From the NCBI GenBank assembly GCA_964615185.1, contig CAZTOS010000031.1:1-24434 (forward strand): DNA of 24,434 nt, given 5' to 3'. This document shows positions 3,752 through 14,776 of this stretch, piece after piece. Made by a program: the position numbers and the translations under genes. This stretch comes from an uncultured Thermococci archaeon. Its GTDB lineage: Archaea > Methanobacteriota_B > Thermococci > Thermococcales > Thermococcaceae. Below the pieces are notes generated by a model. The model ran no database searches. It was not told where the DNA came from and saw nothing but the letters and a program-made list of their open reading frames with translations. Within the stretch, counting starts at the first letter, position 1. Each line of letters opens with the position of its first letter.

Positions 3752-3834
3752 GCAAAAACTTTTGTGAACTCCCTCTTTACCGAGGCATTGAACAGAGTTA
3801 TAAATGCTGAATCCTAATGTATCACGGTGGTCAC

Positions 3835-4500
3835 ATGATCCGCTTGCCCTTTAGAGATGGCTTTTATGAAGTCAATCCGAGCAAGATAATATGCCTCGGA
3901 AGGAATTATGCCGAACACGCAAAGGAGTTAGGTCATGAGGTTCCAAAAGAGCCTGTAATTTTCTTAAAACCTCCTTCCGCTTTGATAGGGCCGAATCAAA
4001 CTATAATCTTGCCACGAAAGAGCAGAGAAGTTCACCACGAAGTTGAGCTTGCCGTTATTATAGGGAAAAGAGGAAAAGACATCCCAAGAGAAAGAGCCAT
4101 GGATTATGTGCTGGGCTACACGGTTTTCATGGATATTACTGCGAGAGATCTGCAAAGCGAAGCGAAAAAGAAGGGTCTCCCTTGGACAGTTGCTAAAGGC
4201 TTTGACACCTTTGCACCTATTGGACCAAGGATTGTTCCAAAGGAAGAGCTTGATCCAAGCGACCTTGAGATAGGGCTGAGGGTTAACGGAGAAGTTAGGC
4301 AGCTCTCAAGGACAAGCAAGATGATTTTTAAGATTCCGGAGATAATCGAGTACATCTCAAGCATAATGACGCTTGAAAAGGGTGACATAATTGCAACGGG
4401 AACTCCAGAAGGAGTAGGCCCTCTAAGGAACGGCGACATTGTGAAGGCCTGGATTGAAGGGATTGGAGTTTTAAAAGAAAATGTGTTGGCGGAGAGCTGA
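3835..4500 (+). CDS. Fumarylacetoacetate hydrolase family protein
   Basis: KIICLGRNYAEH, FLKP, HHEVELAVIIG, DITARDLQ, KGFDTFAP, GDIIATGTP motifs; SD GGTGGT before ATG 3835; TTATAAAT at 3798-3805. Confidence 0.95.
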   Translation: MIRLPFRDGFYEVNPSKIICLGRNYAEHAKELGHEVPKEPVIFLKPPSALIGPNQTIILPRKSREVHHEVELAVIIGKRGKDIPRERAMDYVLGYTVFMDITARDLQSEAKKKGLPWTVAKGFDTFAPIGPRIVPKEELDPSDLEIGLRVNGEVRQLSRTSKMIFKIPEIIEYISSIMTLEKGDIIATGTPEGVGPLRNGDIVKAWIEGIGVLKENVLAES

Positions 4501-4788
4501 CCTCCTCCCCTTTGCGAGGGTTTCAGCGACTTGCCATTGACGGGGAGGTTTGCGGGCTCATAACCTACTCCCGTTGCCGGTTTCGGTTCAGCCCGCAGGC
4601 CGGGTCTTCGGCCAATTACCCCTACCGCAGAGCGGCTCGGGGTTATTGTTCAGATGCCGCCTTTCAAAGTTTTTACGGCCACGCCGGGTGGCGTGGAATG
4701 TGGACGCCTATCGGCGTCGCATATCCAAACGGATAGGCCATGATGAAACTCTTTGAAAGAGTTTGTCCTCGGTGGCCTCTTCGAGGCC
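4497..4788 (-). ncRNA. Stand-alone structured RNA (~290 nt), omegaRNA/reRNA-like
   Basis: GC-rich island with stems at 4774-4788, 4746-4764, 4722-4735, 4703-4718, 4679-4696, 4618-4643, 4598-4613 and 4551-4597; own BRE-TATA upstream; ends at an IS605 right end. 5' end approximate. Confidence 0.7.
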
Positions 4789-4804
4789 TTACTACGTTGC
4801 AGAG

Positions 4805-4819
4805 TTTAAAAGAGTTTCG
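4805..4819 (-). promoter_or_regulatory. BRE-TATA promoter of the structured RNA
   Basis: Minus strand CGAAACTCTTTTAAA about 17 nt upstream of the first hairpin. Confidence 0.6.
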
Positions 4820-4888
4820 GTGCTTAAAGGCTAATTAGGTAGTGGTTCGTACCCCGCCCTAAAGGGCGAGGCTTGAAAAAAGTCAATA

Positions 4889-5281
4889 CTATGCTGATTT
4901 CTTTTCCCTTAGCTTTACAGAAATCCACTGCATCTTATTTTCTTCATTTTTAACGACCAAAACGTAGCCTCCTTGTGAAATCTTGACATCGTTGAATTCA
5001 ACTGTTTTCACATGCTCCCAAGCTTTGTAATATTCGAAGTGCTCTCCCCGCTTCATTTTCTCAAAGTTTTCTTTGGTTAGAATGTAAACGCTTATCTTTC
5101 CGTTGGCTTTTATGTATCCATTCAGTATTGAGTCTCCAAGGAGGTGGTACACCTTATATTCATTGAGGTTTGTTTTCCATTCGTAATTGAAGTTTCTGTA
5201 GTGGGATATGACAAAATACCCCAGTGCTCCCAAGAGAAGCACCCCTGCAAATGCCACCAAAATGATTCCTTCTTTCTTCAT
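4889..5281 (-). CDS. Hypothetical protein with N-terminal membrane anchor and small beta-rich domain
   Basis: 130-aa ORF, hydrophobic N-terminus, SD GGTGA, upstream AAACTTTTAAG promoter-like motif. Confidence 0.8.
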   Translation of the reverse strand: MKKEGIILVAFAGVLLLGALGYFVISHYRNFNYEWKTNLNEYKVYHLLGDSILNGYIKANGKISVYILTKENFEKMKRGEHFEYYKAWEHVKTVEFNDVKISQGGYVLVVKNEENKMQWISVKLREKKSA

Positions 5282-5321: not shown

Positions 5322-7527
<2,206 letters not shown>

Positions 7528-7587: not shown

Positions 7588-7708
7588 GATGATGCCTAAC
7601 GGCATGTCCGTTGGGAGGAGGGCTCTCTGACCGGGCCGTATGCGGTCTACCGCAACCGAAGTTCCCATGTTGGGAACCCCTGTCCTTCAGGACGGGGAGG
7701 AAGGTCAG
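7588..7708 (+). ncRNA. Compact omegaRNA-like scaffold (~120 nt); predicted guide continues from 7709
   Basis: Hairpins 7595-7615, 7641-7654, 7661-7677, 7678-7697; CTGACC (7627-7632) is complementary to terminal GGTCAG (7703-7708), as in the omegaRNA pseudoknot. 5' end approximate. Confidence 0.72.
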
Positions 7709-8775
7709 TCCAAAATTGCTATAACTCCCTTCCACTTCTTTCCAAAGCATTCACTCGCTATGACTTTCTTTCCAGTCAGCTTTTCCAAAAGCTTAATCCC
7801 ACCATCGCACTTCTTAAACCCTGTTGCTATACCCACAGTAAAGCCTTCAATTTCCTTAATCCCAACTCTCTTCACATTGCTTGGTTCAATCTTCTCTCTA
7901 AACTTCCAGAGTATTCTCCTCGGGTCTAGCAAAAGTTCTCGTTCAATCTCCTCAAGGATATCACTGTATGCCCACTGGAATTCTTCTTCTCTCTTTTCTT
8001 CCTTCCCAAAAAGAGTAAACTTTCCAGTCTGCCATTCTCTGAGGAAATAGCGGGCAGCTTCTTCGATGTCAACCTCCCCTCCCTTTCTAAGTAAACCTTT
8101 CTTTCTGCCAATTGCCTCTAAAATCTGCTCTTCACTTTCAAACTCTTGGATATCATATTTCTCAGTCAAAGCTTCTTTTCTGGTCTCAAGAATACGTTTA
8201 ATAAGCTTTAACGCTGGCTTTACTGGGTCTTCAATCTTGTCCGCTGGAAAGCCTCCCCTAATGACTAGCTCATCAAAATCGTCTATTGGAACGACTCCTG
8301 GCGAATCTATGAGCCAAATTTTCTTGCTTAGCCTTATAAGCTGTTTCCCTTTTGTGTATCCGGGAATTGGGGCAACACCAACAGCATGTTTACCCTTGAG
8401 AACATTAATTATCGTGCTCTTTCCGACATTTGGATAGCCAACTAACGCAACTTTAACTTTTTCTTTTCCTTCATCAAATAGCTCTTTTGCTATCTTTTTG
8501 ATTTCTTTCCTTAGCATCCCTGTTCCCTTTCTCTCTCTTGCACTGATAAAAACCATAGGAACATCGCTTTTTCTCTTATAATCCTCAGCCCACTCTTTAG
8601 GAACTAAATCTGCTTTGTTCATAGCTATGAGCAGTTTTTTCCCGCTTTCCCTCACTAATTTCTCAACCTTTAGATTTCTCGTTCCAATTGGATCTCTTGC
8701 ATCAACTACCTCAATTACAATATCAGCTTCGTCTATTACTTCTCTCACTACCCTCCATGCTTTTCTCTGTTTCAT
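7705..8775 (-). CDS. Circularly permuted GTPase, RbgA/YlqF family
   Basis: EVVDARDP, then NKADL (G4) preceding GYPNVGKS (G1), PGYT (G2) and DSPG (G3). Confidence 0.93.
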   Translation of the reverse strand: MKQRKAWRVVREVIDEADIVIEVVDARDPIGTRNLKVEKLVRESGKKLLIAMNKADLVPKEWAEDYKRKSDVPMVFISARERKGTGMLRKEIKKIAKELFDEGKEKVKVALVGYPNVGKSTIINVLKGKHAVGVAPIPGYTKGKQLIRLSKKIWLIDSPGVVPIDDFDELVIRGGFPADKIEDPVKPALKLIKRILETRKEALTEKYDIQEFESEEQILEAIGRKKGLLRKGGEVDIEEAARYFLREWQTGKFTLFGKEEKREEEFQWAYSDILEEIERELLLDPRRILWKFREKIEPSNVKRVGIKEIEGFTVGIATGFKKCDGGIKLLEKLTGKKVIASECFGKKWKGVIAILD

Positions 8776-10593: not shown

Positions 10594-11460
10594 ATGAGAA
10601 AATTTCTGATCTTGTTATTTTTGTTAATATTGATTGAATTAAGCCTTCCATCGGTAAGTGGTAGTCCCATTGGAGAGTTATCAATGAATTTAAATGTTAC
10701 CTTAGTAAATCCTACCCCTTTTTCAAAATTCGTGATTGTGAATCCCCAATATAGCTACACACTATACAGAGAATCCTATAGGGGGATAGAGAAGTTAAAT
10801 TCTTTGCCCGGATTTTGGATAGATCCATATGAAAGTTTAAAGGTCAATGTCATGATAAACGAAACAATACTGATTCCGGCAAATTATACATCTAAGACCA
10901 CCAACATTTTCCAGGGGATAGTGTATCCAAAACTCGTTGTATCTCCAAAAATGCTTAAAATCTCTGATGTTATTATGGGGGATATTATGATTGTAAAGTA
11001 CCATGGAAAAGTCGAACTTAGGATTGAGAATTCGCCTTATGACGGGAACTATGTTTTTGCAGTAGGCATGCCTGTAATTTTTGTAGAAGCAACGCACTAT
11101 GATTTTAATCCCGAATATACCATGTGGTTTAAGGATTATTCCGCATTCTTGAAATCTTACCTCTCTCTCAAAACATATAGCAACAAGTCTATGGGAATTT
11201 TAAACACTACTAAAAAGAATTTTGTATTGTTTTCCCTTTCTGATAGGTTAATTACTGGCAAAGCAGTAAGAGAAAGTGTTCAGCTTAGAAACTATGATAA
11301 AGATAAAGTTGATTTCCCGATATGGGTAATATGGCTTGGGGAAAGTAGTATTGATATAAGTTATCAGGTAAAGTGGGAGAATGTAAAAAGGGTGAGTTCC
11401 AGTGGAAGAAAAGAAAAAGAAAAAATCTGGGTTATTTTGGATAAACGAAATATTGAATAA
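10594..11460 (+). CDS. Hypothetical secreted protein of the pilus cluster
   Basis: 288-aa ORF with signal peptide MRKFLILLFLLILIELS; SD GGGGGT; operonic position. Confidence 0.8.
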   Translation: MRKFLILLFLLILIELSLPSVSGSPIGELSMNLNVTLVNPTPFSKFVIVNPQYSYTLYRESYRGIEKLNSLPGFWIDPYESLKVNVMINETILIPANYTSKTTNIFQGIVYPKLVVSPKMLKISDVIMGDIMIVKYHGKVELRIENSPYDGNYVFAVGMPVIFVEATHYDFNPEYTMWFKDYSAFLKSYLSLKTYSNKSMGILNTTKKNFVLFSLSDRLITGKAVRESVQLRNYDKDKVDFPIWVIWLGESSIDISYQVKWENVKRVSSSGRKEKEKIWVILDKRNIE

Positions 11461-14400
11461 AGGTGCAACTCCCCTTGAGGATCTCCTTAAAGAAGAATCT
11501 GGTAAGGGGGGGATTGAGGAGAGAGAAAAGAGTAGTTTACCAATTTTTTATGAAACTTCTGAGGAGTCTACATCCGATACACTGATAAAGTCTACTCCAG
11601 AGGCTTCAATTGCACTCCAGCGAATTTTAGGAGAAGCTCAATCTCAACAAAGAAAACTGCCTTTCTTAGCTCCTGAAAGTGAGATTGAAGTATTAGCGGA
11701 GTATGGAAATGTGAGGATAATAAAAGCTAAATGGGAACCAGTGCCCATTTATGAGCTCAAATTACCCAAACTCAGCAATGAAGAGAAAAAGCTACTCAAC
11801 ATGATTAAAGATAGAGCTGTTGTGCAAATTAGGGTAAATCCAGAGAGTATCCCAGATATTGAAGAGAGAAGAAGGATATTCTTTAAGGCAATAAAACAAT
11901 TGGCTAAAGACATGGCGCCAACGTTTTCTGAAGGAAAAATTGAGTTGTTTGCTCAATTGATTGTTCAAGATATGATTGGTTACGGAAAGATAGATCCGTT
12001 GGTGAGAGATGATAATCTCGAAGAAATTATGGTTATCGGGGTGAGAAAACCAGTATATGTATGGCACAGAAAATTTAACATGTGCAGAACAAATATTGTT
12101 TTTGAGAGTGAAAGGGAACTCTTAAATATCATAGAGAGAATTGCGAGAGAAGTCGGTAGAAGAATTGATCAACAAAGCCCGCTTTTAGATGCTCGTTTAG
12201 CAGATGGGAGCAGAGTAAATGCTACAATCCCACCCATAAGCTTGGATGGTCCTACTTTAACAATTAGAAAATTCAAAAAAGACAAATTGACTATTATCGA
12301 CTTAATTAGATATGGTACGTTTAGCTTAGACATCGCTGCGTTACTGTGGATTTTTGTCGATGGCTTAGGAGTTAAGCCTGCAAACATTCTTGTAGCTGGT
12401 GGAACTGGTTCTGGTAAAACAACTACATTGAACTCCCTTGCAATGTTTATACCTCCTAATGAGAGGGTTATCAGTATAGAGGATACAGCAGAATTGCAGT
12501 TGCCCATTGAGCACTGGGTTAGATTAGAAACAAGGCCACCAAATATTGAAGGAAAGGGAGAAATCACAATGGATGATCTTGTTAAGAATACATTGCGTAT
12601 GAGACCTGATAGGATTATTATCGGTGAGGTAAGAGGACCTGAAGCAAGAACAATGTTTACAGCAATGAATACGGGACATAATGGAGCGTTATATGATTTC
12701 TCAATAATACAGCTTTCTGATGGAAGATTTGAATTAATCGGCACGCTTTGTAACAAATTGTTTGAGAGATACAAGGAGAAAATAAGAACGTACAAAGATT
12801 TGGAGTACATTGAGCTGGAGGAAAAGGATCGCTTTAATGTTGTTAGCGTTGGACCCGATTTGAAGTCTGGCACTCATACGGTCTCAAAGATATGGAGAAG
12901 GAAAGTAAGGGAAGGAGAGAAGCTTATGAAAATTACGACAAGGACAGGCAATGAAGTTATCCTCACAAAAACTCATCCATTCTTTGTGTTCTCTGATGGT
13001 GATGTCGTTAGAAAAGAGGCAGCAAAGCTCAAGGTTGGGGATAGGGTTGCAGTAATGATGAGACCTCCAAAGGTGCCAAATAGGGGTTACAAAGTCTCTC
13101 TGGAAATGTATTCAGGGATAAGTCGCTACTACCTTGTTCCGAATGGAAATGGGGATATTCGGATTTTAGGAAAGAGATACAAGAAAGTGAAGAACAATGG
13201 AGTACCCCCAGAGGATGCTGAATATCTTATGTCAATAAACTCAGCACCTGTAAAAATCGTTAGAGAGCTTGATGGCAGGCTTTCATATATCGCTGGGGTT
13301 ATTCTTGGAGATGGGTACATATCTTCAAATGGCTATTATATATCTGCAACATTTGATGACGAAGGGTATATGAGTGCGTTCATAAATGCCGTAAAGGAGT
13401 ATCTTCCAAATTCAGAACCAGCTATAAAAGACAATGGAACGAGCAAAGTCGTAACCTTTGGTTCCAAGATATTTGCTGAGATGCTATCAAGGATATTCTC
13501 AATTCCAAAGGGCAAAAAATCAGATGGCTGGAACGTACCTGATGCTGTGTTACACAGTGAGGATTTTATAAGGCATTTTATAGCTGGTCTCTTTGATGCC
13601 GATGCATACGTTGATAGCAAAGGTCCTTCAATAATGCTAATAACGAAAAGCGAAAATGGTGCAAGAAAGATATGGTATGCTCTCCAAAGGCTTGGTATTA
13701 TAAGCACGGTATCAAAACAAAAGAATAGAGGCTTCAAAGAAGGCTATATCTTTAGAGTCATAGTAAGAGGCATTGAGGACTTGAAAAAGTTCTATGAGCT
13801 AATTCCTCTTCAAAATACCAAGCGTAGAGAAGAACTCCGGAAGATTATAGAGAACAAGAAGAACTATCGCGGAAATCATGTTTATCGCATACCAATTTCC
13901 AGCAAGATGATAAAGCCGTTGAGGGAAAGATTGAACTTAACTGTGACAGAGCTCTCCAAACTGGCCTCAACCTATGCGGGAGAGAAAGTTTCGGAAAGCT
14001 TAATCAGGCATATTGAACATAACAGAGCATCTGAAATCAGACGCTCAGCTCTCAAAGGAATAGCGTTAGCTTTTCAGAGGGTTGCTCGGGATATTAACGA
14101 CTCAGAAGCATGGGCATTTGCAAAGAGACTCGAGCTCCTTGCTGATGGGGATGTTTACTGGGATGAAGTTGTTAGTGTCGAAGAAGTTGATCCAAAGGAA
14201 CTTGGGATAGAGTATCTCTATGATCTTACGGTTGAGGATGACCACAACTATGTTGCAAATGGTATTTTGGTATCCAATTGTATGGGAACAATACACTCTA
14301 ATTCAGCAAGAGAGACTATTATAAGGCTTGAAAGCCCTCCAATGAATGTTCCAAGGATTATGATACCTGCACTGGATATTATAATAATGCAGGTAAGATA

Positions 14401-14776
14401 TCATAGCAGAAAAAGAGGAACCTTAAGGAGGATAGTTGAAATTTCCGAGGTCTCGGGGATTGAAGGAGATAGTGTCCAGCTTAATACATTATACAAATAT
14501 GATCCAGCAAAAGATACACTTGTCTCGACAGGAGTGCCGAGTAGGTTCATGAATACACTCTCTCAGTTTTCTGGATTCACTTTGAAGGAGTTGGAATTTG
14601 AAAAGGAGAAGAGAAAATTAGTGTTGGAGTGGTTATTGGAGAAAGGCATTAGATCACTATCAGAAGTTGGGCAGTATATACGACATTTCTATATTGATCC
14701 AGATGAACTTCTAAAAACTATTGAACAAGAAGCATCTTCCATGGAACTTGCAAATAAAGTTAAGGAGTTTATATAG
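11402..14776 (+). CDS. klbA: Type IV pilus/type II-IV secretion assembly ATPase (KlbA/CpaF/VirB11 family), intein-containing
   Basis: DARLADGSRVNA, Walker A GGTGSGKTT, IEDTAEL, LRMRPDRIIIGEVRG; spliced junction TGHNG/CMGTIH. Confidence 0.93.
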   Translation: MEEKKKKKSGLFWINEILNKGATPLEDLLKEESGKGGIEEREKSSLPIFYETSEESTSDTLIKSTPEASIALQRILGEAQSQQRKLPFLAPESEIEVLAEYGNVRIIKAKWEPVPIYELKLPKLSNEEKKLLNMIKDRAVVQIRVNPESIPDIEERRRIFFKAIKQLAKDMAPTFSEGKIELFAQLIVQDMIGYGKIDPLVRDDNLEEIMVIGVRKPVYVWHRKFNMCRTNIVFESERELLNIIERIAREVGRRIDQQSPLLDARLADGSRVNATIPPISLDGPTLTIRKFKKDKLTIIDLIRYGTFSLDIAALLWIFVDGLGVKPANILVAGGTGSGKTTTLNSLAMFIPPNERVISIEDTAELQLPIEHWVRLETRPPNIEGKGEITMDDLVKNTLRMRPDRIIIGEVRGPEARTMFTAMNTGHNGALYDFSIIQLSDGRFELIGTLCNKLFERYKEKIRTYKDLEYIELEEKDRFNVVSVGPDLKSGTHTVSKIWRRKVREGEKLMKITTRTGNEVILTKTHPFFVFSDGDVVRKEAAKLKVGDRVAVMMRPPKVPNRGYKVSLEMYSGISRYYLVPNGNGDIRILGKRYKKVKNNGVPPEDAEYLMSINSAPVKIVRELDGRLSYIAGVILGDGYISSNGYYISATFDDEGYMSAFINAVKEYLPNSEPAIKDNGTSKVVTFGSKIFAEMLSRIFSIPKGKKSDGWNVPDAVLHSEDFIRHFIAGLFDADAYVDSKGPSIMLITKSENGARKIWYALQRLGIISTVSKQKNRGFKEGYIFRVIVRGIEDLKKFYELIPLQNTKRREELRKIIENKKNYRGNHVYRIPISSKMIKPLRERLNLTVTELSKLASTYAGEKVSESLIRHIEHNRASEIRRSALKGIALAFQRVARDINDSEAWAFAKRLELLADGDVYWDEVVSVEEVDPKELGIEYLYDLTVEDDHNYVANGILVSNCMGTIHSNSARETIIRLESPPMNVPRIMIPALDIIIMQVRYHSRKRGTLRRIVEISEVSGIEGDSVQLNTLYKYDPAKDTLVSTGVPSRFMNTLSQFSGFTLKELEFEKEKRKLVLEWLLEKGIRSLSEVGQYIRHFYIDPDELLKTIEQEASSMELANKVKEFI
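12686..14278 (+). mobile_element. KlbA intein (531 aa), Ala1 type, with LAGLIDADG endonuclease and HTH insert
   Basis: Starts ALYDFSIIQLSDG; block B TKTHPFF; motifs IAGVILGDG and IAGLFDADA; block F YLYDLTVEDDHNYVANG; ends VSN followed by Cys+1. Confidence 0.93.

Follow-up and report, generated by a model that had tools for sequence, protein, structure and literature searches.

An omegaRNA-type core behind a separate 5′ RNA domain in a protein-less IS200/IS605 element of Thermococcales

INTRODUCTION

How does a DNA segment without a credible gene come to carry a promoter, a strongly folded predicted RNA, and the end structures of a transposon? The question is raised by a 385–base pair (bp) segment of contig CAZTOS010000031.1 (GenBank assembly GCA_964615185.1) from an uncultured Thermococci archaeon. 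The stretch analyzed here, referred to below as the window, comprises positions 1 to 24,434 of this contig. A preliminary description, made from the sequence alone, had taken the segment for a protein-less IS605 derivative reduced to a promoter and a ~290-nt guide-type RNA, which would be either an orphan omegaRNA loaded in trans by a TnpB nuclease encoded elsewhere or a domesticated small RNA (sRNA). We argue that the segment is a non-autonomous IS200/IS605 element of the kind known as palindrome-associated transposable elements (PATEs), living off the proteins of autonomous relatives. We put the probability of this reading at roughly 0.7.

RESULTS

The segment is a recent insertion of a multicopy element

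The FAH-family hydrolase gene next to the element was sought in 41 genomes of the family; 29 loci besides the window’s own were returned, and each was read individually. The element is absent from the site in all 29 relatives, six of which belong to the same genus. In one empty allele (locus L035, genome G091), the two flanks abut exactly at the element borders. The element is therefore 4497–4881, lies 3′ of a fixed short target, TGAC, and is a recent, precise insertion without target-site duplication. At 385 bp it is too short for a transposase gene, and its longest sense open reading frame (ORF) has 22 codons (a 74-codon frame runs on the opposite strand), so the preliminary description was right to see a protein-less IS605 derivative with no credible ORF; the features that it named were all found at their positions on the minus strand (Table 1). 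The insertion also reshaped the host gene: The element’s terminal TCA, read on the opposite strand, provides the FAH-family gene with its stop codon, and the C-terminal SILC conserved in 28 of 29 relatives has been removed.

BLAST together with a profile of the 5′ part of the element gave 20 matches in this genome, on several contigs and with different flanks. By eye, eight of them run from promoter through 5′ domain and core to the right end, apart from a missing part of the 5′ domain in one; four are cut by contig ends, and eight are decayed or deleted. Matches to the element occur in 72 of 99 Thermococcales genomes. Such numbers of copies and genomes argue against a domesticated sRNA. Across the phylum, a covariance model of the 5′ domain matched 52 of 133 genomes, each of them a member of the same family (0/36 in five other families). 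An exact-pattern scan of a collection of species genomes returned 20 stretches, all titled Thermococcus, Thermococci, or Thermococcaceae, and no match was found in the plasmid and phage collections.

Reduced relatives were also seen. One subfamily (contigs C106, C35, C2, C38, and C34) has lost most of the core and mostly the promoter as well, keeps the 5′ domain, and has a common deletion junction; it apparently spread after its deletion. In ~50-bp terminal-only elements (G000:C32 ~14415–14452, C13 ~26050–26091, and L041), one hairpin serves as both left and right end. Comparable core deletions have been described for Haloquadratum (PMC3119063).

The left-end DNA guide predicts the target

Y1 elements follow a base-by-base pairing rule between a DNA guide at the left end and the target. 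Among 59 distinct left ends of the family studied here, the bases at the foot of the left hairpin predict the target: CAAG has TGAC or TGAT upstream in 23 of 24 cases and TTAC in none, while AAAG has TTAC in 27 of 35 cases, with TGAY as well in one of the 27, and neither in 8. The target of the window copy is therefore TGAC. The preliminary description had given TTGAC; this sequence is present at 4886–4882, but its first T is incidental, the fifth target base being variable across the family. AAAG with TTAC is the pair of IS608 (PMC5027513).

Subterminal palindromes are present at both ends, as in IS605-type elements. The left hairpin described earlier was confirmed, with CAAG at its foot. At the right end, the terminal GGAGGAGGTCAG of the element ends at 4497, and the hairpin is of a shortened variant that also occurs in several copies with different flanks and in tnpB elements.

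Promoter spacing is conserved across copies

The archaeal promoter, a TFB recognition element (BRE) followed by a TATA box, was likewise verified. We compared 53 distinct full copies, chosen for having the domain, the core, and the right end; their mean column identity is ~70%. In 50 of them, a TATA box lies 27 to 31 nt before a conserved G (29 or 30 nt in 47), compared to a background of 1.2%, and 44 have a BRE-like motif. The promoter stands at the same distance from the left end as in tnpB-only elements, and 20 of 22 tnpB elements with this left-end promoter have their ATG 33 nt past the TATA box. Together, the two spacings place the predicted transcription start near 4782. The predicted RNA would thus extend over ~286 nt to the right end (246 to 314 nt in the family, median of 301), an unremarkable length since published omegaRNAs span 79 to 466 nt (PMC10278001). 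The ~290-nt guide-type RNA of the preliminary description agrees with this predicted length; the scaffold in common with tnpB elements, though, is restricted to the 3′ ~153 nt, and the 5′ ~133 nt are a separate part.

Region 4473–4790 folds with −133.8 kcal/mol (z of −5.2; none of 100 shuffled sequences was as stable). The z values of the 5′ and 3′ parts are −4.8 and −2.9 (0/200 shuffles each). Over the element, no Rfam family reached its threshold; the left hairpin alone matched the last 23 positions of sot0042 (18.5 bits). A tRNA-like RNA was considered and rejected, as ARAGORN found none in the window.

The 3′ part is an omegaRNA-type core

The 3′ core is homologous to the 3′ region of tnpB elements, ends at the element border, and is followed by a variable flank in the position of a guide. 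The preliminary description had proposed a search for copies downstream of tnpB genes; the core is present at the 3′ ends of cognate tnpB genes of one TnpB clade, where it overlaps the last codons. A subterminal 3′ hairpin within ~10 nt of the scaffold end is taken as a mark of omegaRNAs (PMC10278001); in the window copy, the hairpin at 4520–4507 stands 10 nt before the border. In 27 gene-less copies, 95.3% of the cells of the core alignment are paired, and both sides of a pair have changed 28 times, compared to 8.5 in shuffles (0/500 reached this value). The loop GACC of one core hairpin is complementary to a terminal GGUC in 49 of 53 copies, with GGCC in 3 more, which predicts a pseudoknot.

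When seven sibling gene-less copies were scanned with the sot0042 model (RF02656), two matched over the full model (E of 4e-6 and 1e-5), two matched weakly (E of 0.14 and 2.3), and three did not match. Neither this family nor HgcC (RF00062) reached its gathering score. For sot0042 (88 bits), the family siblings score 15 to 37 bits and the best gene-less sibling 34.5; for HgcC (50 bits), 18 to 41 and 38.1, respectively.

In 31 of 36 distinct tnpB-linked scaffolds (L069, L073, and further ones in the range L070–L177, for instance), one stem of the core is closed by a tandem GA/GA signature of a K-turn or K-loop; in gene-less copies, this signature is irregular. By analogy, the signature suggests that L7Ae may bind omegaRNA; L7Ae binding has been shown for P. 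abyssi sRk52 and sRkB/C (PMC3124441).

The 5′ domain is confined to gene-less copies

Between the promoter and the core lies a predicted RNA domain in which a closing stem, P1, surrounds four hairpins. Over 26 copies, 88.9% of the cells of its 34 pairs are paired (35 to 51% with slid partners). Both-side changes number 26, compared to 13.5 in shuffles (0/500). Both controls overstate the difference, since the copies are kin and one of them served as the source of the drawn structure. P1, a long-range stem, is paired in 92.7% of cells and keeps 9 or 10 of its 10 pairs in 44 of 53 copies, compared to 68 of 1060 shuffles.

The possibility that the domain is the leader of intact tnpB genes was rejected: Within or before tnpB, no credible match was found in 56 tnpB-carrying loci, and two strong matches turned out to be separate gene-less copies nearby. 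By these comparisons, the 5′ domain stands apart as a module that gene-less copies alone carry. Its descent from tnpB coding sequence was assessed in five ways, of which four were negative and one was weakly positive. nhmmer found nothing in either direction, and the covariance model found nothing credible. A sliding-profile scan gave no collinear order (4 of 52 overlapping windows at P of 0.02, uncorrected). The weak signal came from one global-alignment test, with z of 1.8 to 3.1 in eight of eight non-independent tnpB ends. Several resemblances noticed by eye, to start codons and to the zinc-finger region, are mutually incompatible. No description of the element family or of the 5′ domain was found in the literature searched, where subscription papers were thinly covered, so an earlier description is possible; the domain is apparently undescribed.

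The genome encodes TnpA and an intact cognate TnpB

One Y1 TnpA is encoded in the genome. Its gene looks intact, lies on contig C16 upstream of an open tnpB, and has the same ends around it as the element. The many different flanks of the copies imply that they have moved in the past. Cognate tnpB genes are intact on C56, open on C16, frameshifted on C27 and C1, and cut short on C42. Both open frames, on C56 and C16, carry the core of the element at their 3′ ends. The left end of the C56 element is off the contig; related elements with a readable left end are of the TGAC/CAAG type. The C56 type would go with TGAC and the C16 type with TTAC. The tnpB gene within the window (6421–7527) is only 27% identical to the cognate type over 277 amino acids and has an HgcC-like RNA of its own, so the partner belongs to a different TnpB clade, as had been predicted. 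The proposal of an orphan omegaRNA loaded in trans therefore holds as regards a partner encoded elsewhere in the genome; the loading itself is a prediction.

The HgcC-like RNA (7618–7710, plus strand, 48.2 bits) lies upstream of and divergent from the window tnpB (minus strand), not at its 3′ end, and has a gene-less sibling on G000:C114 that scores 60.4 bits. For P. furiosus, an antisense orientation of HgcC to its transposase gene has been noted (PMC4247193).

Among 36 cognate tnpB genes read, 33 have stop-free frames. All 33 products have a G[IV]DLG motif, Gly at the RuvC-II Glu position, and an invariant Glu farther downstream; 31 of the 33 have NAD in RuvC-III. Such motifs have been described for RIIr-5 (Altae-Tran et al. 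2023, PMC10691335). The partner clade is, by motif, probably RIIr-5, with RII-r3 and smaller rearranged branches as further candidates; one RII-r5 ortholog is active (PMC10278001).

Many cognate tnpB genes are preceded by an ORF of ~50 amino acids (G000:C56, C27, C42, and C1; L158, L161, and L169). It has no Pfam match, looks like a ribbon-helix-helix (RHH) protein by eye, and lies within intact transposon ends. RHH-TnpB pairs have been described as possible toxin-antitoxin modules (PMC10691335).

Of 52 genomes that have the 5′ domain, 45 also have a cognate tnpB (E ≤ 1e-40), compared to 20 of 47 genomes without the domain, counts in which kin are not independent. Seven genomes have the domain and no cognate tnpB that we could find. 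Five of the seven are near-complete; they contain other TnpB-family genes, and by pattern matching, 1 of their 11 copies keeps the TATA box, core, loop, and right end. The 11 copies share no flanks. Such decay in the absence of a cognate tnpB is, on these sequences, the pattern of a dependent parasite and not of a domesticated RNA.

The flank is a predicted guide and not a terminator

The predicted 20-nt guide has zero to three mismatches to the six same-genus empty alleles, whose target is TGAC in two and TGAT in four. Elsewhere in the assembly, no TGAC-adjacent guide match longer than 7 nt was found. The preliminary description had let the flank (4496–4482) pass into a U-tract (4481–4473, minus strand) that could end transcription at guide length. 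We rejected this terminator. The tract is the reverse complement of host Lys-Glu-Asn codons and is largely present already in empty alleles, and runs of at least four T starting 10 to 25 nt past the right end occur in 7 of 54 distinct full copies, at chance level compared to 13.1% at random genome positions. A terminator scan, built for bacterial signals, found none. No terminator would be needed at this point, because AmaTnpB still cleaves with 59 nt of 3′ padding (PMC10278001).

Table 1. Positions of the element, its parts, and the adjacent genes in the window.
Feature	Position	Strand	Basis or remark
Whole protein-less IS200/IS605 element (PATE), 385 bp	4497..4881	−	Empty allele L035 (G091); multicopy with different flanks
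Target TGAC, host DNA; TnpA target and predicted TnpB target-adjacent motif (TAM)	4882..4885	−	Present in empty alleles L035 and L037; TAM role predicted
Left-end DNA guide CAAG at hairpin foot	4872..4875	−	Covaries with target over 59 left ends
Left-end subterminal hairpin	4852..4871	−	Same in tnpA/tnpB-carrying elements; matches Rfam sot0042 terminal hairpin, E of 0.011
Archaeal promoter: BRE 4820–4814, TATA 4811–4804	4804..4820	−	TATA spacing conserved
Palindrome across predicted start (about G4782); 3′ arm doubles as 5′ strand of P1	4774..4788	−	Start predicted from TATA spacing
5′ RNA domain, ~133 nt; P1 around four hairpins	4650..4782	−	Paired cells, covariation, covariance model
P1 closing stem	4780–4771 with 4661–4652	−	Two mismatches in window copy
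Four hairpins within P1	4764–4746, 4738–4719, 4718–4703, 4696–4679	−	5′ domain model
omegaRNA-type core, ~153 nt, including GACC-loop hairpin 4613–4598	4497..4649	−	Common to 3′ ends of cognate tnpB genes
Right end: shortened subterminal hairpin 4520–4507 and terminal TCAG 4500–4497	4497..4520	−	Conservation stops after TCAG
Predicted guide, host flank, antisense to last FAH-family codons	4477..4496	−	Matches empty alleles
FAH-family hydrolase gene into which the element inserted; S and a stop in place of C-terminal RSILC	3817..4500	+	PF01557, E of 2e-74; 28/29 relatives end in SILC
Upstream gene, 130 amino acids, no Pfam family; formerly overlapped FAH gene end	4889..5281	−	Directly convergent with FAH gene in 5/29 relatives

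Two further features of the window were noted. A long AT-rich, near-perfect palindrome at 2505–2600, between two genes, gives spurious matches to miRNA models. An ORF for a 1124–amino acid secretion or pilus ATPase-like protein (11402–14776) appears, when its translation is inspected by eye, to include an intein that has a homing-endonuclease domain.

DISCUSSION

A PATE predicted to depend on TnpA and TnpB in trans

The sequence supports a non-autonomous element through the insertion, the hairpin ends, the copies, the promoter spacing, the shared core, and the presence of TnpA and an intact cognate TnpB in the genome; from it we infer transcription, loading of TnpB, cleavage, and what the 5′ domain does. 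TnpA acting in trans is very likely what moves the element, by single-strand peel-and-paste. The promoter likely yields an RNA that starts near 4782 and runs through the right end into the flank. Use of this RNA by TnpB in trans is plausible: The nuclease would probably bind the 3′ core, take the flank as guide, and cut TGAC plus flank where the element has been lost. Since the cut would fall on an element-less copy of the chromosome, repair from an occupied copy would then restore the element.

The 5′ domain may, more tentatively, replace the lost tnpB frame with a compact fold in which the 5′ end is paired. AmaTnpB trims its own mRNA, RuvC removing 5′ extensions and leaving 3′ padding (PMC10278001). 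The likeliest use of the fold, on which we would bet at somewhat less than even odds, is to shield the RNA, which is not translated, at high temperature for as long as TnpB has not yet bound and trimmed it. A more specific proposal, which we regard as doubtful, is that the domain arose in the gene-less lineage as a surrogate of the tnpB mRNA and stabilizes or gates the guide RNA so that it outcompetes the nuclease’s own cis guide for a TnpB of either target type (TGAC or TTAC). If this were true, the domain would be a parasite-specific RNA adaptation to the use of an RNA-guided nuclease in trans and would offer a natural thermostable leader for TnpB guide engineering.

The best surviving alternative, which we nevertheless consider unlikely, is a plain DNA-level miniature inverted-repeat transposable element (MITE) or PATE, moved by TnpA in trans, whose RNA no longer works with TnpB and whose structure is kept by recent copying, gene conversion, and palindrome perfection. 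Deletion derivatives that have lost the promoter or the core also spread. In favor of this reading is also the mosaic make-up of the window copy, whose 5′ part is nearest to that of the C4 copy (94/99 and 120/131 identical) and whose core matches the C5 copy (149/154 identical) better than the C4 copy (113/154), the two P1 mismatches being common to the C5 copy as well (38/38). A plain DNA-level element accounts poorly for a promoter spacing held in nearly all full copies at ~70% mean column identity, for a long-range stem retained far more often than in shuffles, and for the decay of copies where a cognate tnpB was not found.

An improbable second alternative makes the 5′ domain a separate functional RNA or a switch. 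The palindrome that spans the start site (27 copies, 90.7% of cells paired) and P1 are both conserved, have one strand in common, and exclude each other, so read-through transcripts and those from the element’s own promoter would fold differently and might gate or bias TnpB loading. Loci L019 and L024, which lack the 3′ strand of P1, retain a perfect palindrome with changed bases, and a stretch of tnpB mRNA is known to inhibit AmaTnpB (PMC10278001). Covariation of the palindrome is, however, marginal (25/500 shuffles), the start falls, by TATA spacing, within the palindrome’s loop, so that its 5′ arm is probably untranscribed, and no Rfam family matches the 5′ domain.

A host sRNA that has been domesticated at a fixed site, perhaps to regulate the FAH-family gene in antisense, would fit the strong fold, the separate promoter, read-through antisense to the 3′ end of that gene, and the altered growth seen when PATE-derived RNAs were overexpressed in Halobacterium (PMC4615843), but it is hardly credible for a site that is empty in every relative read, for an insertion that removes a conserved C terminus, and for an RNA whose copies lie in unrelated flanks, share none in genomes without a cognate tnpB, and decay there.

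Several observations weigh against a TnpB-dependent PATE. Eight of the 20 genome matches have no promoter or no core, several with one common deletion junction, so that spread does not need the RNA. The pairs of the proposed pseudoknot are nearly invariant, and covariation therefore cannot prove it. In the 5′ domain, the pairs with a both-side change number 9 compared to 7.2, which is within the range of shuffles (96/500). In the window copy itself, P1 contains two mismatches and is missing from the full-length minimum free energy fold; this copy also has a shortened right-end hairpin and a core without any Rfam match, its siblings alone matching, below threshold. The cognate TnpBs have Gly at the RuvC-II Glu position, and we infer their activity from the published RIIr-5 class.

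The class of element is known, and the value of a TnpB-dependent PATE at this locus lies in a natural test of PATE omegaRNA use in trans, in which TnpA, TnpB, target, and empty allele are all identified. The 5′ domain adds a conserved RNA fold present only where the tnpB gene is absent. The partner clade, of hyperthermophile TnpBs whose active site is rearranged and for which TGAC and TTAC TAMs and scaffold borders are predicted, might serve as a heat-stable editor.

Comparison with known systems

Thermococcales repeats with structured RNAs have been described in P. abyssi: sRk48/sRk52 and sRkB/sRkC are BRE/TATA-driven, give RNAs of 130 to 343 nt, and are related to the 3′ ends of tnpB genes (Phok et al. 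2011, PMC3124441). The preliminary description had pointed to the high-GC sRNAs of this genus as possible matches. Set by eye against the published alignments, the sequences differ, and those RNAs end in AACGG, whereas the element ends in TCAG. The alignments also show a resemblance of the P. abyssi 5′ parts to tnpB coding sequence; for the 5′ part of the element, none could be shown. The element is thus not one of them by either sequence or terminal motif.

A match to an Rfam family had also been envisaged, and none was obtained at threshold for the window copy. The two nearest families, sot0042 and HgcC, are both RNAs of tnpB 3′ ends or PATEs. Sibling cores align with sot0042 over the whole model from the same first stem and with HgcC at the 3′ end; they stay below the gathering thresholds, and neither model covers the 5′ domain. 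T. kodakarensis HgcC1 to HgcC5 have been described, with HgcC4 and HgcC5 transcribed away from transposase genes (PMC4247193); these two may or may not be members of the family.

PATEs were defined in Haloquadratum (PMC3119063). The PATE RNA VNG_R0052 is expressed in Halobacterium and has a motif in common with HgcC (PMC4615843). According to Meers et al., who worked with Geobacillus stearothermophilus, many PATEs encode omegaRNAs that depend on a TnpB supplied in trans (10.1101/2023.03.14.532601). The element agrees with PATEs in lacking a protein and a target duplication, in carrying subterminal palindromes at either end, and in having a short target motif and a predicted omegaRNA that would need TnpB in trans. 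It departs from them in a conserved 5′ domain of ~133 nt and five stems that separates promoter from scaffold and does not appear in the portions of these reports consulted, and in the occurrence of two target types, TGAC and TTAC, within one RNA family. The element thus belongs to a known kind, the omegaRNA-carrying PATEs, and is a variant with an apparently novel 5′ RNA domain.

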